From a virus (Duplodnaviria; Caudoviricetes): DNA of 64,000 nt. Shown here in pieces: positions 221-59,570 of this stretch. Below the pieces are notes generated by a model, which made no database searches, was not told the DNA's origin, and saw nothing but the letters and a program-made list of their open reading frames with translations. The stretch is from positions 287-64,286 of IMG/VR virus record IMGVR_UViG_3300020582_000008; one strand, 5' to 3'. The first letter of the stretch is position 1. The number at the start of each line of letters is the position of its first letter. Position numbers and translations under genes: made by a program.

Positions 221-462
221 CCCAGCATCTTCAAACCTTCTCGCCTGTCTCCTTGCTGGTCCGTAAGCGCGCCAATGCCTTGCGCAGAGTGGAGACCGTA
301 GAAAAAGCCTTGGAGAGATTGGTGGCAACGAGGGAATATCCGAACGTGTTTCGAAGGCATAAGATGCTGTTACAGTCTGTTGCAAATCTGACGCTGGCGA
401 TTGAGGCGGTTAGGGCGGTGGAAGGCAAGGAAGTGAAGGTGCTGGGTAGACTGGCTACCTAG
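217..462 (+). CDS. hypothetical protein
   Basis: Coupled ORF; its stop TAG (460-462) lies inside 59-bp element copy 1. Confidence 0.55.
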   Translation: MTQHLQTFSPVSLLVRKRANALRRVETVEKALERLVATREYPNVFRRHKMLLQSVANLTLAIEAVRAVEGKEVKVLGRLAT

Positions 463-500
463 TCGCTCGATTGTTCTGTGAGATTCATACGGCCATAGAG
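442..500 (+). repeat. 59-bp element copy 1 (left end of cassette A)
   Basis: ctgggtagactggctacctagtcgctcgattgttctgtgagattcatacggccatagag, followed by ggtcgagaaaa-ATG. Confidence 0.95.
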
Positions 501-511
501 GGTCGAGAAAA

Positions 512-895
512 ATGGGCTGGGCTGTTGGGGAAGGTAAGGACGGCCGCGACATTGGCTATGGAGTGCCGGCGCTGTGCGATCATCCCGATTGCAACGAGCG
601 CATTGATCGCGGCCTGTCGTTTGTCTGCGGAATGATAAACACAGATGGAGAGGATCGCGGTTGCGGGTTGCACTTCTGCGAGAACCATCTTCGCTGTTCC
701 GACCGATTCGGCCAACTGTGCTTTCGATGCTGGCCGCGAAAAAAGACACCCTTTGTTCGGAAACCAGATTTGCCAGAATGGAATATGCACAAACTCACAG
801 ATGAGACATGGCAACAATGGCGGGACGAGCACCCGTTCGGCGTGGCGCGCCTGCAGCAAGACTCTATGGCGGTAAAGCCCGCTCAGAACGGTTGA
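512..895 (+). CDS. Cys/His-rich putative zinc-binding protein (cassette A passenger)
   Basis: CDHPDC, CGLHFC and CFRC motifs; ends SMAVKPAQNG inside copy 2. Confidence 0.75.
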   Translation: MGWAVGEGKDGRDIGYGVPALCDHPDCNERIDRGLSFVCGMINTDGEDRGCGLHFCENHLRCSDRFGQLCFRCWPRKKTPFVRKPDLPEWNMHKLTDETWQQWRDEHPFGVARLQQDSMAVKPAQNG

Positions 896-920
896 GAGAC
901 AAGGTAGCCAAGCTAACCAA
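862..920 (-). repeat. 59-bp element copy 2 (right end of cassette A, inverted)
   Basis: Reverse complement ttggttagcttggctaccttgtctctcaaccgttctgagcgggctttaccgccatagag. Confidence 0.95.
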
Positions 921-935
921 ATCAGAGAGGGCACA

Positions 936-1133
936 ATGAATCAGGAAGAAAGAATCGAGATTGCGGCAGAGGCCATGTGGCGGCATCGCGCATCAAATAC
1001 CAACGAAACTGATTGGGGACGAATGACGTGGGATTCGTTCAACACCATCAAGCCGGATATCGCGGCAATTTATCGGGAGAATGCCATGGTCGCCGTCCGC
1101 GCTCTCGATGAGGCAACGTTGGCGGTCGTGTGA
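936..1133 (+). CDS. hypothetical protein
   Basis: GAGG RBS, ATG, typical small phage ORF. Confidence 0.6.
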   Translation: MNQEERIEIAAEAMWRHRASNTNETDWGRMTWDSFNTIKPDIAAIYRENAMVAVRALDEATLAVV

Positions 1134-1167
1134 ATTTCCGTGCCGTCGCCACAACCCGTGATCAGGA

Positions 1168-1398
1168 ATGAGTCAGCTACCTAACAAAGAGATTCAGCAA
1201 ATAGAAGAGGAACAAATAACCTCGATCGTCACCAAGGCAATACGAGACTTCAATTCACTATCGCCTTATCAAAGGCGACACGCGAGACAGATAACAAGGC
1301 GATGGCTTGTTTGCGGTGGGGCGAATGCGGTAAAACCTGCGGGTGATGAAGAAGGTTTTGAAGCATCATACGATAATCTCGACTTTCAAGGGGGATGA
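1168..1398 (+). CDS. hypothetical protein
   Basis: AGGA just upstream; fills the operon gap. Confidence 0.5.
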   Translation: MSQLPNKEIQQIEEEQITSIVTKAIRDFNSLSPYQRRHARQITRRWLVCGGANAVKPAGDEEGFEASYDNLDFQGG

Positions 1399-1402
1399 AA
1401 AA

Positions 1403-1879
1403 GTGGCGAATTCATTGGCATATCTTGCTACGCCCTATTCGAAATGGAAGCTCGGCCCCGAAGCCGCTTTCATCGAAGCATCCAAACTCGCCGCGCGATT
1501 GCTAGTCTCAGGGGTCAAAGTCTATAGCCCAATCGCCCACACTCATCCGCTCGCATATTACGGGGGTTTGGACCTTCTCGACCTAAGTATTTGGTTGCCA
1601 TTTGACGAAGCCATGATGGAACGCTGCGATGTCTTGATCGTCGCTCACATGGACGGATGGCAGGAAAGCAAAGGCATCGCGCATGAGATTGAATTTTTTA
1701 AACGCGCGGAAAAACCGATCTTCGATCTCGATCCCGAAACTTTGGTGATGACCAAGAGAACCAAATCCGGTCATTTCGACAAGCGAATGCACCTGACACT
1801 TAATGACATGAAAGGATTTTCAGGACCGCCGCGAACTGAAATGCCGCCGTTGGCGATGCCCGATCCGAAGGGTCAATGA
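1403..1879 (+). CDS. DUF1937-like protein (nucleoside 2-deoxyribosyltransferase-like fold)
   Basis: YLATPYS, YSPIAHTHP and GWQESKGIAHEI motifs; GTG start after a GGGGA RBS. Confidence 0.75.
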   Translation: MANSLAYLATPYSKWKLGPEAAFIEASKLAARLLVSGVKVYSPIAHTHPLAYYGGLDLLDLSIWLPFDEAMMERCDVLIVAHMDGWQESKGIAHEIEFFKRAEKPIFDLDPETLVMTKRTKSGHFDKRMHLTLNDMKGFSGPPRTEMPPLAMPDPKGQ

Positions 1880-1880
1880 C

Positions 1881-2192
1881 ATGCCGCGAGAATTCGACAC
1901 CGCCGATATGTTTGCGCCCCGTGAACGCGGACGATTCGGAGAGAATGAGGAACAGCATCGGCCAGGTCGCGGGCCGCGTGTCACTGGCGCCTCGGACTTA
2001 ATCGACCTGACCGTCTATTTGATGATGGACAAGCCCGATAAGAAAGCGATTGCGATTCGCGACCCAGCCAAGGGCGCCACAGCGCCGTGGGTTTGGGTGC
2101 CGCGGTCAATGGTCGAGTACGTCAATGCCGAGCCGGGGCTGATTCTGTTGAAGCTGCCACAATGGCTGGCGAAGGATAAGGGCCTGATATGA
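1881..2192 (+). CDS. hypothetical phage protein
   Basis: WVPRSMVE...LPQWLAKDKGLI motif typical of small alphaproteobacterial phage proteins. Confidence 0.65.
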   Translation: MPREFDTADMFAPRERGRFGENEEQHRPGRGPRVTGASDLIDLTVYLMMDKPDKKAIAIRDPAKGATAPWVWVPRSMVEYVNAEPGLILLKLPQWLAKDKGLI

Positions 2193-2211
2193 CAAAGTTT
2201 AACAAAGGAGA

Positions 2212-2316
2212 ATGGGAATGCGTTTGATAACCGATATTCTCCGGGATATCCGCAAGGGGCGCCCGGTAGAGGAAGCGACAATGGCTCTAGCCGTACATCG
2301 CAGGAAATTCACATGA
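2212..2316 (+). pseudogene. internally deleted remnant of the DUF2303-partner gene
   Basis: Strong AAGGAG RBS; MGMRLITDILRDIRKGRPVEEATMALAVHRRKFT*; ATGA overlap with DUF2303; only 34 aa. Confidence 0.5.
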
Positions 2317-3122
2317 CGACAGAAACCGAAAGCATTGCGGCGCTTGCCCGAAAGACTGCCGCGCCTACGACGATCAAGACTGACGACGGCCGCGAATATT
2401 TGATTTTTGCGGAAGGTTCGACTGTCCGCGAAATCTCCGATGAATATTCGCTGAAAGTCACCACGCCGCGGTACATCAACCAATCTGTTACACTGCAAAC
2501 GCAAGACTCCCTGACCAATTACGTCAAGGCATTCAAGAACGAAAATACGCTGCTGTTCGCCGACATCGGCACTAACTCCATCGTGGGCATCATCGATTAT
2601 CACGCGCCGGCCAAGGCCGATCATGTGGCCCACAAAGCCACCCTCACTCTGCCCTTTTCCGAAGAATGGCGTTTGTGGAGCGAAGTATCCAGCAAACTCA
2701 AACCTCAACTAGAATTTGCCCGGTTTTTGGAAGAGAATGCGGCGGACGTGCGGGCACCATCGGCCGGCGATCTGCTTGATGCCTGCCGCGATCTGCAAGT
2801 CCATCGCAAGGTGAATTTCGTCAAGGCCGTTCGCACTGCAAGCGATAACGAGAATTTCGAGTATACTGAGGAAACAAACGCTACAAACAAAAAGAGCGGT
2901 CTCGAAATTCCTACCAAGTTCGTTCTGGGTCTGCCGGTCTATTTCGGCGAGGAAGATACCGAAGTGTCCGCGTTCCTGCGCTGGCGGCTCGATGATGGTT
3001 CTTTGACGCTCGGCATTCAACTGCATCGGGTTGAACATGTGCGCCAGGCGGTGTTCAAGCAAATCGTTACCGCTGTGGCGGAAGCAACTAGCTGTCCGGT
3101 GGTCTTTGGCAAAGCCGTGTGA
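2313..3122 (+). CDS. DUF2303 (YfdQ) family protein
   Basis: IIDYH, SEEWRLW, QLEFARFLEEN and IPTKFVLGLPVY motifs. Confidence 0.85.
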   Translation: MTTETESIAALARKTAAPTTIKTDDGREYLIFAEGSTVREISDEYSLKVTTPRYINQSVTLQTQDSLTNYVKAFKNENTLLFADIGTNSIVGIIDYHAPAKADHVAHKATLTLPFSEEWRLWSEVSSKLKPQLEFARFLEENAADVRAPSAGDLLDACRDLQVHRKVNFVKAVRTASDNENFEYTEETNATNKKSGLEIPTKFVLGLPVYFGEEDTEVSAFLRWRLDDGSLTLGIQLHRVEHVRQAVFKQIVTAVAEATSCPVVFGKAV

Positions 3123-4456
3123 TGCCGTCAGCTTCAAATACAAAGGGGGGCGGCGGGACTGCCCTCCTAAAATACGATGCCGCGCGGCAAGCCGTGGCAG
3201 AGTGTAAGACGTTCGATGAAGTGCGGGATTGGGAGGATAAGGCTGCGGCCGTGCGGGAATACTCTCGGCGAATCGGCGACCGCACGATGGAACTGGATGC
3301 CATCGAAATCCGGGAGCATGCGCGTCTGCGGCGTGGCGAAATGCTCCTTGAATTGGAGGCTACCGGGCAACTAGGCCCTGGCAAAAAGAAAACGGTCCCC
3401 GGCGAAGGACCAATTGCGGTGACATTGGAATCATTGAAGATTTCTAAAAACGAATCAGCCCACGACCAGAAAATAGCGGAACTTGGACTAGCTAAATTTG
3501 AGGAACGAATCGCCCGTTGCCGAGCCTATGCGGAGGCGCATCCCGAAAAACACGCTTTCGACGTTCTGCGCCCGCCAGATACGCCGATTAACGGCGCCCG
3601 TTCCATTATGGGATCGCGGCAGGAACCCGACGATTCACTTGACTTTTTCCCTACGCCGCCGTGGGCAACGCGGGCCTTGATGGAAGTCGTCTTGGGCGGT
3701 CCGTTTAACTCGATCTGGGAACCAGCCTGCGGCTACGGTCATATGTCGGAAGTGCTGCGGGAATACAGCGACGACGTGTTGGCGACCGATATCTTCGATT
3801 ATGGAGGCTACCCGAAAGCCGTAGCCGACTTCCTGAAATGGGAAGGTCCGGGCGCCGACTGGATTATCACCAATCCGCCGTTCGGCGATGAAACCGAGAA
3901 ATTCACGTTGCGGGCAATAGAGTTAGCGCGAATCGGCGTCGCCATGTTCGTCCGCCTCCAATGGCTCGAATCAGTCGGGCGTTACGAAACGATCTTCAAA
4001 GACCACCCTCCAACCTGCATCGCATTCTTCGCCGAGCGCGTTCCCTTGTGCAAAGGCGAATGGAAGCCCGATGGCACGACGGCTACGGCATATATTTGGC
4101 TGGTCTGGATTAAAGGTCAGGAACCGCGTCCGCCGTTCTGGATACCGCCGGGACAACGCGAGCGATTGACAAAACCCGATGATGCCGAACGATTCACAGT
4201 CCATCCGGTGATTCGGAAAGAGGACTATAAACCGCACGACTCAGGAACGAATCACCAACCGAATGGCACTGACGCTCACCTCGCCGTAGCGGCAGTGTCC
4301 GAACCCGCGTCCGCCCAACCCTCAGCCCCTCAGCCTGTGGTGGACGCGGGTTCACCTTTGTTTCCTGAAATAATCCTTCCGGGGAAAGCTCCGACATGGG
4401 AGCATATCGCGGGCTTTATCGATCAAACAAATCCACATGCGAGAGTGGTATCTTAG
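3119..4456 (+). CDS. amino-DNA methyltransferase (probably N6-adenine) with N-terminal helical domain
   Basis: DFFPTPPW, motif I WEPACGYG, motif IV TNPPF. Confidence 0.85.
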   Translation: MMPSASNTKGGGGTALLKYDAARQAVAECKTFDEVRDWEDKAAAVREYSRRIGDRTMELDAIEIREHARLRRGEMLLELEATGQLGPGKKKTVPGEGPIAVTLESLKISKNESAHDQKIAELGLAKFEERIARCRAYAEAHPEKHAFDVLRPPDTPINGARSIMGSRQEPDDSLDFFPTPPWATRALMEVVLGGPFNSIWEPACGYGHMSEVLREYSDDVLATDIFDYGGYPKAVADFLKWEGPGADWIITNPPFGDETEKFTLRAIELARIGVAMFVRLQWLESVGRYETIFKDHPPTCIAFFAERVPLCKGEWKPDGTTATAYIWLVWIKGQEPRPPFWIPPGQRERLTKPDDAERFTVHPVIRKEDYKPHDSGTNHQPNGTDAHLAVAAVSEPASAQPSAPQPVVDAGSPLFPEIILPGKAPTWEHIAGFIDQTNPHARVVS

Positions 4457-4464
4457 TTGTTTGT

Positions 4465-4523
4465 TTGGTTAGACTGGCTACCTTGGCGTGCGATTGTTCT
4501 GAGAGATTCATACGACCATAGTG
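4465..4523 (+). repeat. 59-bp element copy 3 (left end of cassette B)
   Basis: ttggttagactggctaccttggcgtgcgattgttctgagagattcatacgaccatagtg, followed by ggtggagaaagc-GTG. Confidence 0.95.
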
Positions 4524-4535
4524 GGTGGAGAAAGC

Positions 4536-5618
4536 GTGGCGGCAAATAGCAAGATCGAATGGACTGAGGCGACATGGAATCCGATTGTCGGTTGCTCCAT
4601 AGTCTCGCCCGGCTGCACGAATTGTTACGCTATGAAGATGGCGGCGCGACTTGAGGCGATGTTCGCCGGCACCAGCGGTGCGACGCATTATCGCGGCACC
4701 ACCAAAAAAGTGAACGGCAATGCCGTGTGGACAGGCCAGCTCGCGCTGGCGCCGGAAACCATCCTCACCGAGCCGCTGCGGCGCAAGAAGCCGACGACGT
4801 ATTTCGTCAATTCCATGGGCGATCTGTTTCATGAAGCCGTTGCCAAGGGCGATATCGATCGCGTATTCGCCGTCATGGCGCTGTGCCCGCAGCATACGTT
4901 CCAGGTGCTGACCAAGCGCGCGGCGCGGATGCGGGATTATATGACCAGCGTCACGTTCGGTCGGATCGACGCGGCGTGTCTTTCCCTTAAAACCGATAAA
5001 CCGGCCGTTGCTGCGCATACGCTTTTCAAGAACGTCTGGCTCGGCGTCTCCTGCGAGCGCCAACAGGAAGCCGACGAGCGCATTCCGCTGTTGTTGCAGA
5101 CGCCGGCGGCGATCCGGTTCATTTCGGCAGAGCCTTTGTTGGGACCGATCAACCTCACGCGGATAAACACTCCCGGTAACGGTCTCGGCTGGTTTGACGC
5201 GTTTGCGAGTCCAGATCATTGCCTCGATTGGGTGATCGTTGGTGGCGAATCCGGTCGAAGCGCACGGCCGATGCACCCGCAATGGGCGCGAGATATTTGC
5301 GACCAATGCGAAGCGGCCGGCGTTCCGTTCTTTTTCAAACAATGGGGCGAGTGGGCGCCAGGTCTTTGGTCAGGCGCGGGTGATCCTGCACATTTCAATC
5401 CATTCGATACATCCATCGATATTCCCGATCTCAGTCGTCATGATGCATGGGCAAATCGCGTGCATTGGTTTGATCCCGATAGCGCACCCGATGGCCTCGG
5501 CGCTTTGAAGCTTGGAAAAAAGATTGCCGGGCGGCGGCTTGGGGGTGTTGAGCACAACGGATTTCCACAAGCCTCTATGGCCGTAAAGCCCAAGCAGGAC
5601 AATCGACAGCCAAGGTAG
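4536..5618 (+). CDS. phage Gp37/Gp68 (DUF5131) radical-SAM-like protein (cassette B passenger)
   Basis: SKIEWTEATWNP, GCSIVSPGCTNCYA, FVNSMGDLFH, DWVIVGGESG, PFFFKQWG; ends SMAVKPKQDNRQPR inside copy 4. Confidence 0.92.
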   Translation: MAANSKIEWTEATWNPIVGCSIVSPGCTNCYAMKMAARLEAMFAGTSGATHYRGTTKKVNGNAVWTGQLALAPETILTEPLRRKKPTTYFVNSMGDLFHEAVAKGDIDRVFAVMALCPQHTFQVLTKRAARMRDYMTSVTFGRIDAACLSLKTDKPAVAAHTLFKNVWLGVSCERQQEADERIPLLLQTPAAIRFISAEPLLGPINLTRINTPGNGLGWFDAFASPDHCLDWVIVGGESGRSARPMHPQWARDICDQCEAAGVPFFFKQWGEWAPGLWSGAGDPAHFNPFDTSIDIPDLSRHDAWANRVHWFDPDSAPDGLGALKLGKKIAGRRLGGVEHNGFPQASMAVKPKQDNRQPR

Positions 5619-5631
5619 CCAGTCTAACCAA
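5573..5631 (-). repeat. 59-bp element copy 4 (right end of cassette B, inverted)
   Basis: Reverse complement ttggttagactggctaccttggctgtcgattgtcctgcttgggctttacggccatagag. Confidence 0.95.
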
Positions 5632-5643
5632 AAGGTACTTCAC

Positions 5644-6411
5644 ATGACTCACTACCCGTTATTTGATCCTGACCAACCAATAGACTCATCGTTGGGTTTC
5701 TTTGATCGCAAAGAATGTATTTGGATGAATCTCAAATTTGCAAAAGCCATGCTTGCAGCAAGAGAACGCGGCGAAGAACACTTCACCATCGGCCCGAAGA
5801 TCGACCACACGCCCTTGGTGGGCGCATATTTCGACAGACAACTGCGCCACTCCCCGATGGGTGGGCGTTCAGACCGTACAATTGTTGGCGATGATAAGCC
5901 GTTCGATCCTACCCCATGGCTCGAATTTAAGGATGTAATTTTGTGGGGCAGTAATCACTATGGACGGCGCCTGCCAATAGGTTCGACGCTCGTTTGGCTA
6001 AAGCGGCATATGACCAATTATGGGTATTTCCTGTCAGACGCGGAGATTGCATGGCAACGCGGTGGCGTTGGAGTCTATGTACTTTGCGCTCCCGACAGCG
6101 CGGGGCGGCGGCAAAAGGAATTTACAGGCTCTCCATTCGGCGGTGAGACTGCACACCCATTTCAAAAACCCGTCGCTTTAATGCAATGGTGTGTGGAACG
6201 GATGCCTGCAGCCAAGATTATTGCGGACCCGTTCATGGGATCGGGCACGACCGGAATCGCTGCTTTGAAGCTGGGCCGCAACTTCATTGGCGTCGAAATA
6301 GATGAGGTATATTTTGACATTGCGTGCAGGCGTATCGAGGAAGCCGCGCGACAACCGGACATACTTGTCGAATCGCCCAAGCCCGCAAAGCAGGAAGCAT
6401 TTGAGCTATGA
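5644..6411 (+). CDS. chimeric beta-class DNA methyltransferase lacking catalytic motif IV
   Basis: HPFQKPVALM and DPFMGSGTTG present; no DPPY; unrelated ~73-aa N-terminus. Confidence 0.7.
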   Translation: MTHYPLFDPDQPIDSSLGFFDRKECIWMNLKFAKAMLAARERGEEHFTIGPKIDHTPLVGAYFDRQLRHSPMGGRSDRTIVGDDKPFDPTPWLEFKDVILWGSNHYGRRLPIGSTLVWLKRHMTNYGYFLSDAEIAWQRGGVGVYVLCAPDSAGRRQKEFTGSPFGGETAHPFQKPVALMQWCVERMPAAKIIADPFMGSGTTGIAALKLGRNFIGVEIDEVYFDIACRRIEEAARQPDILVESPKPAKQEAFEL

Positions 6412-7172
6412 GCACCACGCGGCAGCTAGGTTACATCGCTGTATCGCGTAGCATCTTCGACCATCCGCTATTTAAGAATCGTCCCGATTGGCATGTGGCA
6501 TGGGAAAAACTTACGGCGGCCGCCGCCTGGAAGGCGCAAGCCCATGCGGGACGCTGGGGCTCGGCTCATGTCGAGCGCGGGCAACTGGCCAATACGGTGC
6601 GCGGCATTGGGTCGCTGCTGGGCTGGCCATCATCGACCGTTGTTTATTTTTTGCGGCGCCTGTGTGGTGCCAAAATGATTGGCCTACAGGTGATTCGCAC
6701 GAGAATTAATACAAATGACACCATTAAAAACTCTCAGAGGATCACAATCATAACTATTTGCAATTACGACGAAACTCAGATGAGGCCGCGCCTGAAACAC
6801 TCAGGAGTCGCACAAGGAATCGCACAAGGAGTCGCACAAGAAATGCCGAATCTGCCCGGAATTATTGCGGAAGTTGACGCTAACCAGACCAATACACCAA
6901 TATTAAAGAGTAAAGAGGCCACACAAATTCGGCGGGAATATCTGCCGAATCACGGCGCGCGGAGCAAATGCAAAAAATACGTCTGGTGGGAGTACGGATC
7001 GTGGGAATGGACGCAATTCTCTGGGGACTACCGCGAGGTACGGGGCAGTGATATATTCCCTGAGACCCGAAGGATTCGAGACAGCGAAATGACAGGACGC
7101 GGCAATTGGTTTGTTTATCTTGGCGAAGCCGCAAGGCCCAAAAGGGCTGTCCGGCGAAGAAAAACCGCATGA
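6408..7172 (+). CDS. phage replication initiator/organiser
   Basis: GYIAVSRSIFDHPLF, ERGQL and TIITICNYD motifs, followed by in-gene direct repeats. Confidence 0.7.
   Translation: MSTTRQLGYIAVSRSIFDHPLFKNRPDWHVAWEKLTAAAAWKAQAHAGRWGSAHVERGQLANTVRGIGSLLGWPSSTVVYFLRRLCGAKMIGLQVIRTRINTNDTIKNSQRITIITICNYDETQMRPRLKHSGVAQGIAQGVAQEMPNLPGIIAEVDANQTNTPILKSKEATQIRREYLPNHGARSKCKKYVWWEYGSWEWTQFSGDYREVRGSDIFPETRRIRDSEMTGRGNWFVYLGEAARPKRAVRRRKTA
6804..6839 (+). repeat. three tandem 12-bp repeats (putative origin iterons)
   Basis: ggagtcgcacaa ggaatcgcacaa ggagtcgcacaa inside the initiator gene. Confidence 0.7.
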
Positions 7173-7937: not shown

Positions 7938-8561
7938 ATGGGTGCACTGCACAATCCAGCGCATGAAATCTTCGCCCGCGAGGTTGTTGAAGCTCTCCTG
8001 AGTTCCGACCCGAATGTGCGCCGTAATGCCCGAAAAGTAGGCTACGAGCGTGCCGGTTATCCCGGCAACAAGCACAATGCACGCCGGCTGGCAAATTCTC
8101 CGGTCGTCAAAAAGCGAATCAAGCATCTGTTCGAGGAAGCAATTGCGTTCCGCGACGTGCGCTTGGCAACGGTCGTCATGCGGATCGATCGCGTCGGCAA
8201 GGCCAATATCCGGGACTTTTACGGCGACGATGGCAAGCTGAAAGATATTTGTGCGCTGCCCCTCGAATTGAGCGAAGCCGTCCGAAGTGTGATTCGCAAT
8301 GCGGAAGGTGAGGTTTTGGCCTACGAATTCTGGGACAAAAACCAGGCCAATTTCACCCTCTTGAAAAACCTTGGCGGATTGCCCGATACTGACCCTGACA
8401 AGCCGCAGCCCGCGGGTAACACGACGTACAACTTCTTCGCAGGTCTCAGTGTCGAAGATCAATGCGCTCTTGCCGATGCTCTCGACGCTCTCTCCGGAGG
8501 GCCGGAAACTATTGAGCACGAGGCTGCGCGAGAACCTAGCGAAGCAGGCGCCGTTCCGTAA
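7938..8561 (+). CDS. terS: terminase small subunit
   Basis: LHNPAHEIFAREV, YERAGY, NARRLANSPVVKKRI; lies directly before TerL. Confidence 0.8.
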   Translation: MGALHNPAHEIFAREVVEALLSSDPNVRRNARKVGYERAGYPGNKHNARRLANSPVVKKRIKHLFEEAIAFRDVRLATVVMRIDRVGKANIRDFYGDDGKLKDICALPLELSEAVRSVIRNAEGEVLAYEFWDKNQANFTLLKNLGGLPDTDPDKPQPAGNTTYNFFAGLSVEDQCALADALDALSGGPETIEHEAAREPSEAGAVP

Positions 8562-9276
8562 GCTGTATTCGCTCTATCCCGATGAAGGAATGTTGCGACG
8601 TGAACTCTATCCTCGGCATATGGCTTTTTTCGCTGCTGGGGGATTTCATGATCCGATTGAAACGTGGTGCCCAGAAGGCTGCGATGGTTCTCCGCATCGT
8701 GAGCGACTGGCACTGTGTGCAAACCGCGTCGGAAAAACCTTGGGCATGGGCGGTTATGAACTCGCGTTGCATTTGACCGGTCGCTATCCGGATTGGTGGC
8801 CAGGTTATCGTTTCGACCGCCCGATTGAAGCGTGGGCCGCCGGCAAGACAAACGAAACGACGCGCGATATTATCCAGCGCGAAACTTTATTTGGCCCGAT
8901 CAAATGGTTCGGGCGCAAGAAAGGTGTTTCAGGCACGGGGCTGATTCCCGCAGAGGATGTTGATCAAGAGACGATCACTTGGAAACGCGGCATCGCCGAC
9001 TTTATCGATACTATCCAAATCAAGTCGCAGTTTGGCGGCTGGTCATCGCTCGGAATCAAATCGTATGAACAGGGCCGCGGGGCGTTTGAAGGGACGGCCA
9101 AGGATTTCATCTGGGACGATGAAGAACCTCCATTGCCGATCTACACCGAACAATCGATCCGATTGATGACCAAAGCCGGCCTGTCGGTTTTGACCTTTAC
9201 CCCTTTGGAAGGCATGTCGGATGTGGTACAAGCGTTCTTGCCTGGCGGGAGATTGCCAGGGGAATCGGAGTTTTAG
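8476..9276 (+). CDS. terL: terminase large subunit, ATPase part (split gene, P22-like)
   Basis: Walker A ANRVGKT, Walker B FIWDDEEPP, motif III LTFTPLEG. Confidence 0.9.
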   Translation: MLSTLSPEGRKLLSTRLRENLAKQAPFRKLYSLYPDEGMLRRELYPRHMAFFAAGGFHDPIETWCPEGCDGSPHRERLALCANRVGKTLGMGGYELALHLTGRYPDWWPGYRFDRPIEAWAAGKTNETTRDIIQRETLFGPIKWFGRKKGVSGTGLIPAEDVDQETITWKRGIADFIDTIQIKSQFGGWSSLGIKSYEQGRGAFEGTAKDFIWDDEEPPLPIYTEQSIRLMTKAGLSVLTFTPLEGMSDVVQAFLPGGRLPGESEF

Positions 9277-9278: not shown

Positions 9279-9494
9279 ATGGCTGCGACAGCAAAGCCTA
9301 TTACATTTGAGGAATGGGGACGTAGCCAATTGCAGCCTGCCGCTTTGGCGTGCAGATGTGATGAGCAAGCGGATATTCTCAAGGAATATCTTACTGGCGA
9401 ATTTAAGGATTTTATCGACATCAAGGAGCGCGCTGGGTTGGTCGAGTTACAAGCACGGCTGCGCTTGCGGGCGGTTGAACTGCGTGCAGTATGA
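9279..9494 (+). CDS. hypothetical protein between the two terminase halves
   Basis: GGAG RBS; ATGA overlap with the nuclease half. Confidence 0.6.
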   Translation: MAATAKPITFEEWGRSQLQPAALACRCDEQADILKEYLTGEFKDFIDIKERAGLVELQARLRLRAVELRAV

Positions 9495-10300
9495 CCGACG
9501 CCCCAAGCCTCTCTGCCGGCCCAGCCGAAGAAGTCATAGCGAAGCGATCACGCTTTGTCGTGATGGCCGGCTGGAATGACGTTCCGCATCTTACCCCCGA
9601 AATGATTGCGGAAGAAAAATCCCGCATCCCACCCCACGAATTCGAAGCACGCTCACTCGGCAAACCATCCCTCGGCCAAGGCGCGGTCTACCCTGTTCCT
9701 GAATCCGAAATCCTTTGCGATCCGTTCATCGTCCCCGATTGGATGCCGCAGTGCTATGCGCTCGACGTGGGCTGGAAACGAACCGCCGCGCTGTGGGGAG
9801 CCTGGGACCGCGACAACGACGTGGTGTATCTGTACGGCGAACACTATCGCGGGCAGGCCGAACCTCCAATTCATGCCGCTGCGATCCGCGCTCGGGGCTT
9901 ATGGATTCCCGGAGTCATCGATCCCGCCGCGCAAGGCCGAGGCCAGAAAGACGGTGCACAACTGCTCACCATCTACCAGAATGATCTTGGCCTTAATCTC
10001 ACCCAAGCCGATAATGCGCTCGAAGCTGGGATCGTCGCGGTGTGGCAGAGACTCACAACGGGGCGGCTCAAAGTGTTTCGGACGCTGGTTAATTGGATCA
10101 AGGAATATAGGTTTTATCAGCGCGACGAACACGGGCGAATCAAAGACGGACAAGCCGATCACTTGATGGACGACACGCGCTATCTTATCATGTCCGGGTT
10201 AAGCGTTGCGTGCGTGCGGCCGGCCGATCAGTGGACTACGGGTAAATCACAAGTCGCATGGCAAGCGGAATATGACCCCCTCGCCTACCAAACCCGATGA
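9491..10300 (+). CDS. terL: terminase large subunit, lid + RNase H-like nuclease part
   Basis: WNDVPHL, EARSLGKPSLGQGAVYP, ALDVGW, DHLMDDTRY. Confidence 0.9.
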   Translation: MTDAPSLSAGPAEEVIAKRSRFVVMAGWNDVPHLTPEMIAEEKSRIPPHEFEARSLGKPSLGQGAVYPVPESEILCDPFIVPDWMPQCYALDVGWKRTAALWGAWDRDNDVVYLYGEHYRGQAEPPIHAAAIRARGLWIPGVIDPAAQGRGQKDGAQLLTIYQNDLGLNLTQADNALEAGIVAVWQRLTTGRLKVFRTLVNWIKEYRFYQRDEHGRIKDGQADHLMDDTRYLIMSGLSVACVRPADQWTTGKSQVAWQAEYDPLAYQTR

Positions 10301-28777: not shown

Positions 28778-28836
28778 TTGGTTAGACTGGCTACCTTGGC
28801 GTGCGATTATTCTGTGAGAGTCTTACGGCCATAGAG
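28778..28836 (+). repeat. 59-bp element copy 5 (solo, left-type)
   Basis: ttggttagactggctaccttggcgtgcgattattctgtgagagtcttacggccatagag, followed by gattgagaaaaaagatc-ATG. Confidence 0.95.
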
Positions 28837-28853: not shown

Positions 28854-29378
28854 ATGGGTGCGGCACTTCTTCCGGTTATGTTGGTCGCGGGCGTCGCGGG
28901 CGCCGGATTGTCTGCGGCCGGCACTTACGGATCGATGGAGGCGGCTTCCAAGAATGCGGCCTACCAAGCGCAAGTCGCGGCCAATAATGCAACCATCGCT
29001 ATGAAAAACGCTGCGATGGACACGCAGTCGGGGGAGATCGCGGCGTCGAATCAGGGACTCAAGACACGCGCGGCGGTCGGCAAGACCTTGGCGCAGCAAG
29101 GGGCGTCCGGGGTTGACGTGAATACCGGCTCCGCTCCCAAAGTACGCGCGGCAGAAAGCGAACTCGGCGCGCTTGACGCGATGACGATTCGCTCCAACGC
29201 GGCCAAGAAGGCATATTCCGACACGGTTGCGGCGACGAGCGACACGGCGGAATCCCAATTGCTCACGTCGGAGTCGGATCAGGCCGCGACTGCGGCGCCA
29301 ATCTCCGCACTCGGAAATTTCCTGGGCTCGGCATCGAGCGTTGGCGGCAACTTCGGTAAAGCAATGGCGACGGGTTGA
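28854..29378 (+). CDS. small ejection (internal virion) protein
   Basis: Ala-rich; GASGVDVNTGS and DAMTIRSN motifs. Confidence 0.8.
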   Translation: MGAALLPVMLVAGVAGAGLSAAGTYGSMEAASKNAAYQAQVAANNATIAMKNAAMDTQSGEIAASNQGLKTRAAVGKTLAQQGASGVDVNTGSAPKVRAAESELGALDAMTIRSNAAKKAYSDTVAATSDTAESQLLTSESDQAATAAPISALGNFLGSASSVGGNFGKAMATG

Positions 29379-43594: not shown

Positions 43595-43773
43595 GTAGGA
43601 ATTTTGGTCACGCGAGTGCTGCGCGAACTGAAAGACCGGAATCGGTCATCGATTCGACTGAGGAAAAGTTGACGCCGTTTCAGCGGTTTATTCTTGCGGT
43701 TGGGATTGCTGCGGGATTGTTTCTCGGTCTGACGACTGCGCACGGCTATTACATTTGGTTTTTGAAGCCATGA
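43591..43773 (+). CDS. small single-TM protein
   Basis: Hydrophobic C-terminal half; coupled to the lysin gene. Confidence 0.5.
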   Translation: MSRNFGHASAARTERPESVIDSTEEKLTPFQRFILAVGIAAGLFLGLTTAHGYYIWFLKP

Positions 43774-44360
43774 CCAATATCCCCGCGCTCAAAGCCTCCA
43801 ATGCCGCGCGATGGAAGGCGATGCACACGATTGCATCGCTTGGTCCGACGCTTGACGCCGTGGCTCATCGGCTCATTGCTCCAACCGCCAAGGCTCAGTA
43901 TCAAGCTGTGAGCACGGCAACGAAAGTGCCGTGGTTTGTTATTGCTGTTATCCATGAGCGCGAAGCGTCGCAGAGTTGGCTTGCCGGCCTAGCGCAGGGC
44001 GATCCTTGGAACAAAGTTTCCATTCACGTGCCGCGCGGCATCGGGCCGTTTCCGAGTTGGGAAGCTGCGGCCGAATATGCGCTGGAAAAATCCCCGCCGT
44101 TCGCCGCGCGCTGGACGGATTGGACCATCGGGGGCCTGCTCACGCTCTTGGAGGAATACAATGGGCTGGGCTATGCGGCACATGGCGTGCCGTCGCCTTA
44201 TGTGTGGGCGAGTACAGATCAGTATCGTTCCGGCAAGTACATCGCCGATGGTCACTACGATCCGAACGCTATCGATCATCAACTTGGGTGTGCAGCGCTG
44301 CTAAGCCGCATGGCGATGGAGGATACTTCGATCACTTTCGATACGGGGACAGCAGCATGA
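43770..44360 (+). CDS. endolysin (lysozyme-family, COG5526-like)
   Basis: VPWFVIAVIHEREAS, GPFPSWE, LEEYNGLGY, PSPYVW, GKYIADG, QLGCA. Confidence 0.85.
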   Translation: MTNIPALKASNAARWKAMHTIASLGPTLDAVAHRLIAPTAKAQYQAVSTATKVPWFVIAVIHEREASQSWLAGLAQGDPWNKVSIHVPRGIGPFPSWEAAAEYALEKSPPFAARWTDWTIGGLLTLLEEYNGLGYAAHGVPSPYVWASTDQYRSGKYIADGHYDPNAIDHQLGCAALLSRMAMEDTSITFDTGTAA

Positions 44361-45145: not shown

Positions 45146-45293
45146 TGCGCGCGTGTGAATTTCCGTGCTGCCCTGAGCAACCCGTGATCTGGAATGACAC
45201 AATCCAGACTCAATCTAAAACTGTGATGTGCTAATTTTGTCACGGCCTTATCTGCTAAGCGTATGGCGTAACTTCATCAAAGTGGAGACGATC

Positions 45294-47650: not shown

Positions 47651-47749
47651 AACTCTGAATCTATATGCACAGCTTGTCAACAGGTTGTTTCACGATAGGT
47701 CCTTCGGGCTGAGGGACCGGATTCGGTCAACTTTCCATGGGAGGATTAC

Positions 47750-50329: not shown

Positions 50330-50532
50330 AACGCGAACGCCGTACCTGGACGATGCCCGATTGGATGGAGCGTTTCCGTACCAAGATCATCAACACAGGC
50401 GGCAATGCCGTGGAAGAAATGATGGTCGATGACTCCGATCCGCAAATTAACTTGCCCCGCGCCGTTCTTGCGGCTTGCGTTAAATCGCAAGTTGGTTTGC
50501 TGGAAATTCTTCATAAGGATGGTGTGCTGTGA
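50326..50532 (+). CDS. hypothetical protein
   Basis: Coupled ORF. Confidence 0.6.
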   Translation: MKRERRTWTMPDWMERFRTKIINTGGNAVEEMMVDDSDPQINLPRAVLAACVKSQVGLLEILHKDGVL

Positions 50533-51530
50533 ATTTATCCGCTCTCATGTCCGCTTACCGCACCGACCCGGTGTCGAACTTCGCCAAGCTCGAATACTGC
50601 ACGCGGCGGTACTACGTCCGGCTCATGACACAGATCGAGCGCGACCACGGCGACGTGGACGTGGCGACCATCAAAGGCCGCACGATCTACGAATGGCACC
50701 AAGCCTGGACAGACGGCGGCCGGAAGGTCTCTATGGGCCACGCGCTTGTCGGGATGCTGCGCACGCTCGCCAACTTCGGTTTCTTCGCGCTCGATGACGA
50801 AGCCTGCCAGCGGCTTGGGCTGCTGTTGAGCAAAGGCCGCTTCGCCAATGGCAAGCCGCGGACGGTCCATATCACGCGCGAGCAAGCGACCGCGATTTGC
50901 AACGCCGCGCGCCCGCGCCTTCCGATGGTCGGGCTCGCTCAAGCCCTGCAATTTGAATGCACTTGGCGGCAGAAGGATGTGCTTGGCGAATGGCTGCCGA
51001 TTGGCGAGCCGGGTCTGTCGGACGTTTGCTCAATGCACCCGAGAAAAGGCCCGATGAAGTGGCTCAAGGGTTTGCGCTGGGAAGAAATCGACGCAAGCTT
51101 TGTCGTCCATCACGTCACCAGCAAGCGCAAGAAGCTATCCGAGCCGGACTTGACGCTGGCACCGCTGGTCATGGCCGAGCTTGAGCATATGTGGCCCGGT
51201 TGCTCTGCCGATCGATCATTGCTGCCGGCGAGCGGTCCGGTCATCATCGATGAATATACCGGCTTCCCCTACAAGGCCGATGACTTCCGCGAGGAATGGC
51301 GAATCATCGCGACCGAGTGCGGCGTGCCGTTGAACGTGCAGAACCGCGACGCGCGGGCCGGCGCTATCAGCGAAGCCATCGCCATGGGCGCACAAGCGGC
51401 GCACGTTCGCGATGCCGCGACGCATTCCGATGTTTCACAGACGATGGACTACAGCCGCGCCAGCCGGGAGAACACCCATACCGTGCAGCGGATGCGGATG
51501 GAGCAATCAGCAAAAGACAGAGTGGCCTAA
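50529..51530 (+). CDS. tyrosine recombinase/integrase without an obvious arm-binding domain
   Basis: WRQKDV (Arg), TSK (Lys), RDARAGAISEA, ATHS...TMDY (Tyr). Confidence 0.85.
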   Translation: MNLSALMSAYRTDPVSNFAKLEYCTRRYYVRLMTQIERDHGDVDVATIKGRTIYEWHQAWTDGGRKVSMGHALVGMLRTLANFGFFALDDEACQRLGLLLSKGRFANGKPRTVHITREQATAICNAARPRLPMVGLAQALQFECTWRQKDVLGEWLPIGEPGLSDVCSMHPRKGPMKWLKGLRWEEIDASFVVHHVTSKRKKLSEPDLTLAPLVMAELEHMWPGCSADRSLLPASGPVIIDEYTGFPYKADDFREEWRIIATECGVPLNVQNRDARAGAISEAIAMGAQAAHVRDAATHSDVSQTMDYSRASRENTHTVQRMRMEQSAKDRVA

Positions 51531-53185: not shown

Positions 53186-53216
53186 GCACACACATCACAG
53201 ATGTCGGGAGAATGAA

Positions 53217-54790: not shown

Positions 54791-54818
54791 TTTGAAAAGG
54801 GGCCACGCGCGTCCGGTG

Positions 54819-55160: not shown

Positions 55161-55212
55161 GGCCTCTCTCCTAAACGCAGAGTAGAGACCCATCAAGCTG
55201 CCCGCAAGAGGA

Positions 55213-56124
55213 TCAATCAAACAGGTCCCCTTGGATTACCCGGAACTGACGACGGCGTTGCGTGGGGGTAGGCATCGGCTTTGTCGGGACCGCCTTAAGC
55301 GCCGCGTCGATTAACTCGCCAATCGACCACACATGATCGGTGATGCCGAGCGCCATTGCTGGCGTCATCCGCAACGCTTCATGCGTCCGGCACAGATTGT
55401 AGAACGCGACGTAGAGGCCAACGGCCGCAAGGTGGCAATCGATCTTTTTAGAAAACCCGTTGCTCAATCGGGCAAACCGTTTTGAGCCCATGCGCAATGT
55501 CAGATTTTGCCGCTCCACATAGCTTGTCGAAATCTGTTCGGGTTCGCCTGCTTGTGCGATCCGCTCTACGGCTACTACTTGGGCCGGGGAATAGCGTCGC
55601 GAGGCTTCGGTTACGTTCAGGTGCGTTACGCTGTAGGTCTTTTGAATGACGCCATGCGTGGCCCGCTTGCCGAAAGCATCGCGGATCGAGCTTTTGTAGT
55701 AGTGCAGCCCATCGGTCGAAATCTCAGGCGACCCGATCACGCGACCGCGCAAGTCCTGAATAAAATCATCCGTGGTCGCGCCGTCGCGCTTGCCAGTGCG
55801 ATAGCCGATGATGGCACGGGTGGATGAGGCCAGCGCAACGTAAGTGTACTGGTCGCCAAATACGGGCGATTTGCGCGGCTTGCTTTTCTGAGGATTCCGC
55901 TTGTGGCCGACGTAGGCCCATAATTCGTCGCACTCGATCCGGTGGACGTGAAGGCCAACCATCAAGCGGTCGTGCATTTCTGCGCAACCACGGCCGATGG
56001 CGAGTGCCAGCCGGGCGACTGTCTTGCGGTCGGTGTCGGTCAGGCGACTGACGGCGCGCTGGCCGACTCCCTCGCAAAGGGCGGCGATAATTTCAATTTG
56101 CTTGTCGTGAGGAAGGTTGTTCAT
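55213..56124 (-). CDS. IS1-family DDE transposase, single ORF
   Basis: N-terminal HTH, ECDELWAYVG, STDG, TSYVERQNLTLR..KRFARLSNGFSKK. Confidence 0.92.
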   Translation of the reverse strand: MNNLPHDKQIEIIAALCEGVGQRAVSRLTDTDRKTVARLALAIGRGCAEMHDRLMVGLHVHRIECDELWAYVGHKRNPQKSKPRKSPVFGDQYTYVALASSTRAIIGYRTGKRDGATTDDFIQDLRGRVIGSPEISTDGLHYYKSSIRDAFGKRATHGVIQKTYSVTHLNVTEASRRYSPAQVVAVERIAQAGEPEQISTSYVERQNLTLRMGSKRFARLSNGFSKKIDCHLAAVGLYVAFYNLCRTHEALRMTPAMALGITDHVWSIGELIDAALKAVPTKPMPTPTQRRRQFRVIQGDLFD

Positions 56125-56286
56125 GGCGGGCCAAATCCGACATTTGGGGATAGTGGGCCGCCGTGTGGAAAATCGACCTGTTTTGCGCTATACTGCGCGA
56201 AGCGGTCATTTTCTTCGGGGCCAAATCCCGGGGTTGATGATCCGGGGCCGTCGCTGCTTCAACAGTGACGGTCCCACTTACTACGA

Positions 56287-56361
56287 TGGTGCGGAGAGCC
56301 AGGTTCGAACTGACGTTTCGGTGATGTAACCACCGCGTCCTTACCGCTAGACGATCCCCGC
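56287..56361 (-). tRNA. tRNA-Val(TAC)-like gene with encoded CCA
   Basis: Acceptor GCGGGGA/TCTCCGC+ACCA, D arm GTCTAGCGGTAAGGAC, anticodon stem CGGTG/CACCG with loop GTTACAT, T arm GTCAG-TTCGAAC-CTGGC. Confidence 0.8.
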
Positions 56362-56450
56362 GCACAGCGAAAAGCGCCCCATCCGCCGGAAAGCGGGTGG
56401 GGCGTTCGGTTTTGGTCAGTTCGTTGTGCATGGGGATAATAATACGGATT

Positions 56451-56515
56451 TTCTTGTCAACGTCAATACGTATGACAAGAAAAAGTTTGACACATAACAG
56501 GGGCCGTGCCATATA
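56451..56515. promoter_or_regulatory. divergent promoters with an inverted-repeat operator
   Basis: TTCTTGTCA..TGACAAGAA inverted repeat; TTGACA-N17-CATATA on the + strand. Confidence 0.5.
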
Positions 56516-56551
56516 TAACGCCTGCCGACTTGTAACGGACAGGAGATACCA

Positions 56552-57346: not shown

Positions 57347-57370
57347 AAGCGGCTGTTAGTTGGTAGAGCC

Positions 57371-58225: not shown

Positions 58226-58387
58226 CAGCGTTGCGATTGTCAGGGCGCAAGATCGATACATAGCGGTCCTCCAATCTGGTTATACGGTATCACGGTTTTG
58301 GGGTGGGTTAACGGGGGGTAGGGCGCCCCAAAAGGGGCCACCCGCAATTTCAAAAGGGACCAGTCGGGATGGAAAGGGGCCAGTACC

Positions 58388-58501
58388 CGTTGCCGGCAGA
58401 TCGGTGCGATGGATAAAAACGTCGCCGGTCCCATCGTCGCGGGTGATGAAGCCGTAGCCTTTCGTGTCGTTGAAAAACTTGACCTTGCCTGTGATTGCCA
58501 T
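58388..58501 (-). pseudogene. csp: cold-shock protein truncated by the IS
   Basis: [19 protein letters not shown]...DVFIH (RNP1/RNP2), cut after codon 38 at the IS end. Confidence 0.9.
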
Positions 58502-58530
58502 GATTGGCTCCTGTTTAAGCTACGAAAGTT

Positions 58531-58740
58531 TTAGTCTATTGCAACCGCGCGGTCGTAGTTGTCATCGGTGAGTTTCTTTACCACGAATGCGCCTTTGCCG
58601 CCGCATATATCGCACCGAGCCGGCGCACAACAAAAGTCTGGATCATCATCACAGCCACATGCGCACGAATCTTCGAAACACCCGGCGATGGTTCCGTAGC
58701 CATCGCATTTCCAGCATTCAACCGACCATTTTGTCGTCAT
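58531..58740 (-). CDS. Cys-rich zinc-finger protein
   Basis: CWKCDGYG...CDICGGKG. Confidence 0.65.
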   Translation of the reverse strand: MTTKWSVECWKCDGYGTIAGCFEDSCACGCDDDPDFCCAPARCDICGGKGAFVVKKLTDDNYDRAVAID

Positions 58741-59171
58741 GACAACATCCCCGCCCGCGCCACAAACACGATGCTTCTCATCTTAACCAAATCCCCGCGC
58801 GCTGCATAGAGTCTTGTGCATACGTGCGGTGCGGAAATTCCGATGTCGTAGTAGAATTGCAACTCTCCGATTTTGTGTTGCTCGTTATGGTGTTCGAAAC
58901 ATCCGGGGAGAGTCCATCGATCGGCAGGTTTCTTTTGCATCCCGCCGCGCTTGCCGTGGGCTGCGCTCTGTTGCCGAACGTGCATGGCGAATCCGCAGGG
59001 CTCCATCGTGCACTTGATGCAGGGGAGTTGTCTTATCATGCCCAGATAAACCGGGTCGCGTTCTCCTACCTCTTTCAGTTTTATTTTCTTTGTCGTGTCG
59101 AAGGCGCGTTTGAGTAATTCGCCGGGGTGCGAGTCTTTGGGAGGGATACGTTGGGCTCGGTGGAGTGTCAT
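58737..59171 (-). CDS. DUF968/Ref-like HNH-type nuclease
   Basis: YLGMIRQLPCIKC, KPADRWTLPGCFEHHNEQH. Confidence 0.75.
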   Translation of the reverse strand: MTLHRAQRIPPKDSHPGELLKRAFDTTKKIKLKEVGERDPVYLGMIRQLPCIKCTMEPCGFAMHVRQQSAAHGKRGGMQKKPADRWTLPGCFEHHNEQHKIGELQFYYDIGISAPHVCTRLYAARGDLVKMRSIVFVARAGMLS

Positions 59172-59180
59172 GATGTTTGT

Positions 59181-59238
59181 TTGGTTAGACTGGCTACCTT
59201 GGCTGTCGCACTACTGAGAGGGTTTTACGGCCATAGAG
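59181..59238 (+). repeat. 59-bp element copy 6 (right end of cassette C; 58 bp)
   Basis: ttggttagactggctaccttggctgtcgcactactgagagggttttacggccatagag. Confidence 0.95.
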
Positions 59239-59501
59239 GTTTGTTCTGGGGCCACCTTCGCAATCGCCGCCTCTAACCGATTGTGGGAGTCCAAATACCG
59301 AGCATACGAAACGGTCCCGGCGCTTGCGATCATGAACTGCGCAGCCGCAAGCATTTCGGTAAGGTCGCGGGTATTGCGCAGCCCGATTGAAAGGATAGAC
59401 CGCGCCGCCGCTTCGCCAAGCGGTCCTTCGTCAGCGTGAGCATCGGCCTGTTCCAGATAATTCAGGTCCGCCTCTAGTCTCGTGATAAGCTCCGCGCTCA
59501 T
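59211..59501 (-). CDS. hypothetical helical protein (cassette C passenger)
   Basis: Starts 10 nt after copy 7; ends SMAVKPSQ inside copy 6. Confidence 0.7.
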   Translation of the reverse strand: MSAELITRLEADLNYLEQADAHADEGPLGEAAARSILSIGLRNTRDLTEMLAAAQFMIASAGTVSYARYLDSHNRLEAAIAKVAPEQTSMAVKPSQ

Positions 59502-59511
59502 TTTCTCTATC

Positions 59512-59570
59512 CTCTATGGCCGTAAAATCTAGGCAGAATTATCGAGGGCCAAAGTAGCCAAGCTAAGCAA
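59512..59570 (-). repeat. 59-bp element copy 7 (left end of cassette C)
   Basis: Reverse complement ttgcttagcttggctactttggccctcgataattctgcctagattttacggccatagag, followed by gatagagaaa-ATG. Confidence 0.95.

Follow-up and report, generated by a model that had tools for sequence, protein, structure and literature searches.

Short sequences that bracket or precede single genes or transcribed units are known from integrons, ribosomal RNA operons, transposable cassettes and several phages, and these systems are the closest described counterparts of the element analyzed here. The element is about 59 bp long and occurs in seven copies in a stretch of 64,000 nucleotides of phage DNA (the window), which comprises bases 287–64286 of a 64,286-bp IMG/VR virus record (IMGVR_UViG_3300020582_000008) with completeness rated 100%. 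Most copies stand as inverted pairs around one gene each, and the copy at the 3′ side is often translated, in one preferred reading frame, as the end of the enclosed gene. In the following, the copy at the 5′ side is called the U arm, its inverted partner at the 3′ side the D arm, and the enclosed gene the cargo; together they form a cassette.

The cassettes of integrons are single, promoter-less and exchangeable genes, whose open reading frame (ORF) can end in the recombination site. They carry one attC site per cassette, stand in direct arrays and rely on the IntI integrase, and the site folds on itself. Unlike attC sites, the arms are inverted, a single arm folds into 4–5 pairs only, and the 91 ORFs scanned include no recognizable integron integrase. 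Around the 16S and 23S ribosomal RNAs, and at the RNase III sites of phage T7, a unit on one transcript is flanked by distant stretches that are complementary to each other. An internal loop interrupts these helices, each of which belongs to its own unit, and they lie around RNA genes or between genes. Here, unlike in such leader–trailer helices, one standard sequence is reused around many protein genes, and cleavage is putative. Of the features that mark leader–trailer helices, pairing of the arms is seen in the predicted folds of cassettes 1 and 3, and compensatory change was not found.

Among phages, the promoter-early stem-loop (PeSL) cassettes of T4-type phages, reportedly a subject of work by Comeau and colleagues in 2014, are a further point of comparison. 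PeSLs consist of sigma-70-like promoters and terminator hairpins, and recombination yields mini-circles (Arbiol et al, 2010, PMC2839356). Both systems have short conserved modules that bracket small accessory genes in variable regions, turnover of the genes between the modules and no transposase; unlike PeSLs, the arms are inverted, have neither a sigma-70 match nor a hairpin within the single copy, and are translated in their 3′ copy. In Cluster K mycobacteriophages, SAS is a 13-bp motif of unknown function for which a role in translation initiation was suggested, and ESAS is a 17-bp inverted repeat with a 4–13-bp spacer that lies wholly upstream of the start (Pope et al, 2011, PMC3203893). 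The arms resemble these sequences in standing directly upstream of starts in a subset of genes and in one orientation, and differ from them in sequence and size, in wrapping the gene and in the second copy that supplies its 3′ end. Finally, MITEs (miniature inverted-repeat transposable elements) are defined by a target-site duplication and a transposase (Nadal-Molero et al, 2024, PMC11602168). Like MITEs and mobile insertion cassettes, the present elements have terminal inverted repeats, no internal transposase, empty and passenger-bearing forms and several copies per genome. Unlike MITEs, they show no target-site duplication of 2–10 bp, have no cognate transposase that could be found and are absent from the cellular genomes searched; in addition, their arms are functionally asymmetric and are read in a fixed frame. 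Our literature search turned up no account of single phage genes enclosed by inverted arms that also provide the 3′ end of the gene.

A two-block element in convergent pairs

A profile built from the seven copies and run on the window returned exactly seven matches (E 1e-22 to 1e-18; next match E 0.9), at the positions and on the strands listed in the initial annotation of this DNA. The left block alone (23 nt, at most 3 mismatches) identifies 5 copies in the window and has zero matches in 100 shuffles. As first described, six copies form three convergent (+ then −) pairs with one ORF inside each, and the seventh copy stands alone:

442–500, + strand: U (5′) arm of cassette 1 (nhmmer E 5e-21)
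512–895, + strand: cargo 1, 127 aa, Cys-rich, PHROG 18518/9476, no Pfam family
862–920, − strand: D (3′) arm of cassette 1, inverted (nhmmer E 1e-18)
4465–4523, + strand: U arm of cassette 2 (nhmmer E 8e-21)
4521/4536–5618, + strand: cargo 2, DUF5131 (Gp37/Gp68 family; Pfam PF07505, E 1e-91)
5573–5631, − strand: D arm of cassette 2 (nhmmer E 2e-21)
28778–28836, + strand: solo U arm (nhmmer E 1e-22)
59512–59570, − strand: U arm of cassette 3, whose genes lie on the minus strand (nhmmer E 9e-20)
59211–59501, − strand: cargo 3, an ORF of 96 aa of no known family
59181–59238, + strand: D arm of cassette 3, 58 nt (nhmmer E 6e-19)

The cargos agree with what had been read from the sequence alone: the Pfam match of cargo 2 identifies it as the Gp37/Gp68 gene, the 96-aa protein received no family assignment, and the zinc binding proposed for cargo 1 is plausible from its composition.

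Alignment of the copies shows the conserved ends and variable middle that had been noted. The outer block reads TTGGTTAG-AC/CT-TGGCTACCTTGGC and contains three TTGG words spaced 9 bp, the variable middle has about 20 nt, and the inner block reads TTTTACGGCCATAGAG. Positions in the two blocks are mostly 80–99% conserved across all copies, and conservation often continues outward as GTTTGT and inward as G-N-TTG, which extends the element as originally delimited. The alignment also separates U and D arms into two distinct types, a point that the annotation had not made. U arms have the conserved middle TTCTGTGAGATTCTT, followed by G-R-T-N-GAGAAA and the start codon; the GAGAAA motif and start codon after upstream copies, already described, can be read directly in the sequence. 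D arms keep both blocks and have other middles, a few subtypes of which are common to several sites and genomes.

Three simpler identities were considered for the single arm. RNAalifold predictions for U arms and for D arms, on both strands, contain one invariant helix of 4–5 pairs (−2 to −3 kcal/mol), and a structured RNA within a single copy was rejected on this ground. In window positions 1–7000, the arms match neither a sigma-70-type promoter nor an intrinsic terminator. A tRNA-like origin was likewise set aside, the sole tRNA of the window, a tRNA-Val (56287–56361, −), being unrelated to the arms.

Beyond the window, an exact-pattern scan of IMG/VR gave 29 loci on 15 contigs, and the profile confirms 28 loci on 14 contigs; the remaining locus, L025, fails the profile and is a chance match. 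The same pattern found 43 loci in metagenome contigs, 33 of them genuine and 10 due to chance, and several of the genuine ones look like the same assemblies as IMG/VR contigs, with internal positions that agree. In bacterial and archaeal genomes (one each for 185,579 species) all 5 pattern matches were rejected as chance, with 5–14 bits versus 44–75 for real copies. Chance loci in general score at most 14 bits or are undetected by the profile, and one set of them falls within a conserved gene from an organism of low GC content. An 80-nt arm query had no match in GenBank phages at E up to 1, and Rfam at the gathering score had 0 matches across the whole window. Together with the literature, these searches place the element outside known families, in line with the annotation, which had not recognized it.

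De-duplication leaves a family of 42 convergent pairs, whose interiors span 3–1154 nt, plus 18 solo copies; about 8 of the latter are no more than a few hundred bases away from the edge of their locus. The same end of the arm always points outward, and no divergent or tandem neighbors occur closer than about 2 kb; neighbors in the order “− then +”, 2.0–2.5 kb apart, are adjacent cassettes. Copies elsewhere are thus not randomly oriented, an arrangement that would have spoken against the system as first proposed. For counting, we dropped the pair of L023, whose U arm is followed by no ORF, the pair of L028, one arm of which is truncated where the locus ends, loci duplicating the five complete relatives G001–G005 (61–67 kb) that formed our comparison set, and the exact duplicates L009 (= G005 45212) and L020 (= G005 24237). 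The resulting curated set contains 24 non-redundant cassettes.

Placement among genes, reading frame and cargo turnover

The U arm lies 5′ of the cargo in all 24 curated cassettes, with the cargo start 7–30 nt after it, and the three solo U arms examined have a start codon 2–10 nt downstream. The nearest upstream stop on the same strand falls at −10 to +19 of arm base 1 in 21/24 cassettes and at −21 to −54 in 3, and is sometimes a TAG inside TTGGTTAG. On the other side, the next same-strand start follows the D arm at +1 to +33 in 18/24 cassettes and at +61 and +64 in two more, and is missing within 80 nt in 4; three of those six cassettes sit at a site that is followed by a promoter-like motif. 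None of the 24 is oriented against its neighbors.

The D arm is read in a preferred frame. In 14/24 cassettes the cargo enters it in the frame S-M-A-V-K, so that the protein ends in ..Q-x-S-M-A-V-K-(P/S).., with the stop at +19, +25, +31 or +43 of the arm. The cargo stops ahead of the D arm, at −4 to −28 nt, in 9/24, and enters it in another frame in one (L031). All three cargo ORFs of the window run into the D arm in the common frame and stop inside it, which adds to the initial annotation: cargo 1 ends in LQQDSMAVKPAQNG, with the final residues and the stop supplied by the D arm at 862–920, cargo 2 in FPQASMAVKPKQDNRQPR, with a stop TAG within 5573–5631, and cargo 3 in APEQTSMAVKPSQ, with tail and stop encoded by 59181–59238. 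Three of the five solo D arms examined are fused in the same frame to the preceding gene, among them that of L084, where an exonuclease ends in FAKERPASMAVKSEQNG before its stop; the other two are preceded by a stop. When the five homologous DUF5131 cargos are counted once, 13 of 14 arm-ending genes use this frame (P = 6e-6 versus an expectation of 1/3). No stop falls inside the inner block. Even an empty cassette (L010, 2137–2272, about 136 bp) keeps the frame and encodes merely MQASMAVQTPR and a stop.

Homologues without arms indicate what the tail replaces. An armless DUF5131 homologue in G003 ends in ..RQFPNHAL, where cassette versions continue as ..RQFPQ(T/D/A)SMAVK.., and homologues of an 83-aa cargo of G003 that lack arms also differ from it at the C-terminus. 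Judged by these comparisons, the tail takes the place of native C-termini, and the arms are additions to existing genes. Since a frame constraint on the D arm can act only via translation, at least part of the function should lie at the level of mRNA or protein.

Cargos turn over at fixed sites. The site directly after a methyltransferase-like gene holds DUF5131 cargos in five genomes, at 30–58% protein identity and in a single orientation, and unrelated cargo in G004 and G005; in L026 it holds a U arm followed by a different start, probably that of another cargo, in a pair that runs off the locus end. The exonuclease site, between the exonuclease gene and the next gene, has a different cargo in each of G000, G004, L018, L031 and G001, and the solo D arm in L084. 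In G002 (43880–44040) the exonuclease ends in a decayed D-like stretch (YAKKRPVSAMMTESGSAN and a stop) where others have a cassette or an intact solo D arm; it looks like a relic of the element absorbed into the gene. For whole cassettes, the only variants seen at one site are a replaced cargo, a solo D arm and a decayed D arm. G001 also has the solo U arm of position 28778, which in G002 is missing as a clean indel of about 70 nt. Arm subtypes that are common to several sites, together with this turnover, show that arms and cargos move between sites over time. Arms that stay conserved at an old site while the cargo diverges to 30–58% identity argue either for a role at that position or for continual renewal.

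At a third hot spot, relatives carry cassettes of 11–226 codons, whereas in G002 an 87-aa ORF is enclosed by an inverted pair, 49 nt long and 98% identical, of an unrelated repeat. This repeat belongs to a second family, consisting of GGTCACGAGAG, about 17 variable nt and GACCGGA-N-TCGGTCAAC. Its copies are mostly solo, in sense orientation and just upstream of starts, and they also keep GA-N-TC. The window has two (43601–43675, +; 47685–47743, +) and relatives 2–7, including 27613–27688, 28897–28984 and 29225–29308 in G002, where one copy has the inverted partner just described.

In the window itself, the cassettes are fitted closely between other genes. The stop TAG of the ORF at 217–462 falls within the U arm of cassette 1, at arm position 19, and the gene after this cassette starts at 936. 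The U arm of cassette 2 begins about 8 nt past the stop of the methyltransferase-like gene at 3119–4456, and a DNA methylase gene follows the cassette, starting at 5644. The solo U arm lies between a tail-region gene and an internal-virion-protein gene (28854–29378). In cassette 3, positions 6–8 of the U arm are the stop TAG of an RNase_T-type exonuclease gene (59563–60168), and the next minus-strand gene (58737–59171), which has weak DUF968/HNH-like matches under the Pfam cut-offs, starts 10 nt past the outer end of the D arm.

Judged by its genes, the window genome is that of a podovirus-like phage. It encodes a T7-type head–tail connector, a GP7-type major capsid protein, tail proteins and internal virion proteins, as well as a lysozyme-bearing protein of 738 aa, a two-part large terminase, two DNA methyltransferase-like genes and two exonucleases. 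The N-terminal family and the nuclease family of the large terminase have exactly one match each among the 91 ORFs; ORFs 8512–9276 (+) and 9491–10300 (+) are separate entries in that set, which fits a split terminase with a 71-aa ORF between its parts. The gene calls come from a home-made ORF scorer and are rough: the ORF of cargo 1 was missed and put back via its PHROG match. The portal protein is at most 32% identical to those of the nearest cultured phages, and the sole sequencing run found to contain the stretch is labeled as a soil metagenome; no RNA run was found to contain window positions 300–6300. G001 and G002 can be aligned to the window genome across about half its length at about 81% identity, and the alignment of G003 spans merely 449 bases.

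Possible long-range pairing and competing explanations

The account that we favor, tentatively and at somewhat less than an even chance, is that standard arms enclose every cistron in a long helix of RNA and act in recombination as well. A clade of podovirus-like phages, uncultured and from soil, would package single accessory genes within operons by means of an arm pair. The U arm would lie in sense, after or over the preceding stop and before the ribosome site, and the D arm would be the same element inverted; translation of the cargo would end a few codons before the D arm, or pass its inner block in one frame and stop inside, and the start of the following gene would usually come 10–33 nt past the D arm. 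Because the cassettes are co-oriented with their neighbors and tightly packed, both arms should share one transcript. This transcript should fold in the cell into an interrupted long-range helix that closes the cistron. RNase III-type enzymes cut helices of this geometry, and ribosomes that translate the cargo would have to open it; cleavage at the arms is conceivable. Such a helix may insulate, process or stabilize the inserted cistron and would tie its fate to its own translation. At the DNA level, the common arm sequence may provide the homology for cargo swaps between cassettes and between phages, with no need for a dedicated transposase.

Predicted folds are consistent with the helix. In cassettes 1 and 3, an arm–arm helix is present in the minimum-energy fold as well as in the centroid fold (z −4.0 and −3.3), and 0/100 shuffles fold as well. 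The predicted helix has an outer part of 23–29 bp and an inner part of 16–21 bp, with a loop of about 20 × 20 nt between them. Arm positions 9–10 are AC or CT, apart from one other form (TT), and this dimorphism is heterotypic in 18/24 pairs (P = 0.011, uncorrected); we treat it as unexplained and not as a finding, because cassettes at one site are not independent and many features were inspected. In an RNA helix, the AC/CT difference would give a 2 × 2 mismatch at a fixed place.

Several observations weigh against this account. Partner arms are slightly less alike than non-partners: 4968 of 5000 partner shuffles had as few or fewer mismatches in the blocks, and 4600 of 5000 were at least as similar in the middles. 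Differences between partners have no bias toward G-U-compatible changes (53 versus 56). The arm sequence is conserved well beyond what pairing needs, and solo arms exist, the solo U arm at 28778 being the top-scoring copy of the window. GANTC stands at a fixed place in 20/28 U arms versus 0/29 D arms, and the U-specific middle, including this motif, requires some further function. In 9/24 cassettes, the ribosome never enters the D arm. Finally, the helix leaves the fixed frame unaccounted for, given that a stop in the third frame would also fall inside the arm. The helix is therefore best described as physically expected from the arm sequences, with no signature of selection on individual pairs. 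Frequent exchange of arms among cassettes, if it occurs, would lead selection to keep every arm at a common standard, and pair covariation would not arise. The initial annotation had listed long-range RNA stems among its options and covariation between left and right copies as their test. That test gave no partner-specific covariation; what stands of the option is that a helix is physically expected if the arms are co-transcribed, and that the frame suggests action at the mRNA level.

A non-autonomous transposable cassette, akin to a MITE or mobile insertion cassette, is the next candidate and in our view an unlikely one. Here the arms would be terminal inverted repeats, the transposase would act in trans and the gene would be a passenger. 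The geometry fits, since the arms are inverted with the same end outward in all 42 convergent pairs, the interiors range from 3 to 1154 nt, and one empty form exists (L010). Arm subtypes common to sites and genomes, different cargo at one site and the clean indel of a solo arm between relatives also speak for mobility. Furthermore, a survey of IMG/VR for MITEs (PMC11602168) lists 99 viral MITEs for phages of Acidobacteriae UBA7540, one soil lineage, and these may include the present pairs. Against transposition stands the lack of a target-site duplication, already noted for the window: over the 24 cassettes, the mean length of the longest direct repeat between outer ends is 2.33 nt, compared with 2.28 nt (sd 0.17) for shuffled partners. 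No genuine copy occurs in the 185,579 bacterial and archaeal species genomes, the arms at an old fixed site are conserved despite the divergence of its cargo, and a fixed reading frame is not expected from transposition.

The search for a transposase points the same way. None lies inside the pairs, as had been stated, although the window does encode an IS1-like DDE transposase elsewhere (55213–56124, −; Pfam 31.9 bits, cut-off 24.1), beside the tRNA-Val gene. This gene occurs in 1/6 complete genomes and is absent from all other genomes and loci compared; being confined to the window genome, it is probably a recent insertion sequence. As the profile search found no eighth copy in the window, no arm lies beside it. 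Its inverted ends are not convincing (27 nt at 70% for the best), and we rejected it as the partner of the arms. Pfam found no other transposase among the 91 ORFs, and no serine recombinase, resolvase or invertase. Of the option of mobile one-gene cassettes, then, the cargo swaps, the empty form, the common subtypes and the solo indel are borne out, but not a target-site duplication, a conserved transposase or a copy in bacterial genomes.

Function at the DNA level, which includes the paired protein-binding sites that the initial annotation had offered, is a somewhat more doubtful alternative. Each arm would be a bipartite binding site or an unusual promoter used by a phage or host factor, which at inverted pairs would loop out the gene or drive convergent transcription through it. 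Two conserved blocks at a fixed distance with a variable spacer, and the evenly spaced TTGG words, would suit such a site, as would solo U arms upstream of genes and a conservation of the sequence itself, beyond complementarity. The U-specific middle with its GANTC adds to this, and the second, start-associated repeat family keeps GA-N-TC as well. The motif lies at arm positions ~41–45 (for example 482–486, 4505–4509 and 28818–28822) with a variable middle base, as in GATTC and GAGTC; a link to methylation, prompted by the two methyltransferase-like genes of the phage, is a guess. A single site of 59–65 bp would be long, however, and DNA binding does not explain D arms that lie within coding sequence and are bound to its frame.

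The arms also have no sigma-70-type match, though a canonical-looking promoter occurs elsewhere in these phages. This motif, with an extended −10, lies at 45221–45245, upstream of the gene at 45228/45294–46112 and of its homologues, and reads CTGTCA-N17-TAAAAT in the relatives, which suggests that these phages use ordinary host-type promoters elsewhere. No conserved candidate binder was found. A small cold-shock-domain ORF (58280–58501, −) lies close to cassette 3; a simple motif search, which could miss variants, found it in the window genome alone and not in the five relatives, and it was not retained as an arm binder. A virion RNA polymerase that uses hairpin promoters was rejected too, the 2166-aa protein matching internal virion protein families only.

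It is quite improbable that the D arm is a peptide tag, that is, a portable C-terminal ..QxSMAVK(P/S).. that would give unrelated accessory proteins a common fate such as turnover, localization or loading into the virion. The idea draws on the shared frame of 13/14 independent arm-ending genes, on the replacement of native C-termini by the tail, and on synonymous codon variation in D arms at Ala (GCC/GCG/GCA) and Lys (AAG/AAA). Yet the nucleotides are equally preserved in U arms, which are not translated in that frame, and the outer block of D arms is conserved downstream of stops at +19 to +31, so the peptide does not account for everything. Both the length of the tail and the residues that follow K(P/S) vary, and 9/24 cargos have no tail.

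An invertible switch, in which a site-specific recombinase would flip the segment and turn the gene on or off, as the initial annotation had also considered, is suggested by inverted repeats around a short segment and can be dismissed almost entirely, since 0/24 cassettes stand against their neighbors, the DUF5131 site has one orientation over 5 genomes, no invertase family or serine recombinase was found among the 91 ORFs, and an integrase-like ORF (50529–51530) has a weak tyrosine-recombinase-like match (E 0.007) and is not conserved, with short terminal matches left in 3/5 complete relatives. The contigs of one DNA run, possibly of the source sample, break at the repeat, and a long “joint” from 511 to 5567 in these data is cross-matching of the repeat.

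Accessory genes in packed phage operons

A bolder extension of the favored account, which we consider improbable, is that the arms form an expression-ready frame for gene capture. The empty form would be a landing pad that offers a ribosome site, a start, an in-frame tail and a stop and at which the phages acquire or exchange coding sequences, and captured genes would be joined in one frame, with a common C-terminal tail, into a closed RNA unit. If this is true, nature would have its own version of a cloning or cassette-exchange vector, one that works without a dedicated transposase.

Phage genomes gain and lose small accessory genes very fast, and how they fit new genes into packed operons without harm to the neighbors is poorly understood. 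In the phages described here, one reusable wrapper seems to set the start context, the last amino acids and the stop of the inserted gene. That the 3′ arm is read in a fixed frame is a clear peculiarity, open to testing and foreseen by none of the standard models. Were the arms to act at the RNA level, they would represent a general means of insulating an inserted cistron or of setting its timing, and a role as recombination arms would mean gene exchange between phages without a transposase. The second, unrelated repeat that wraps a gene in a relative suggests that wrapping by inverted repeats may be widespread and overlooked.

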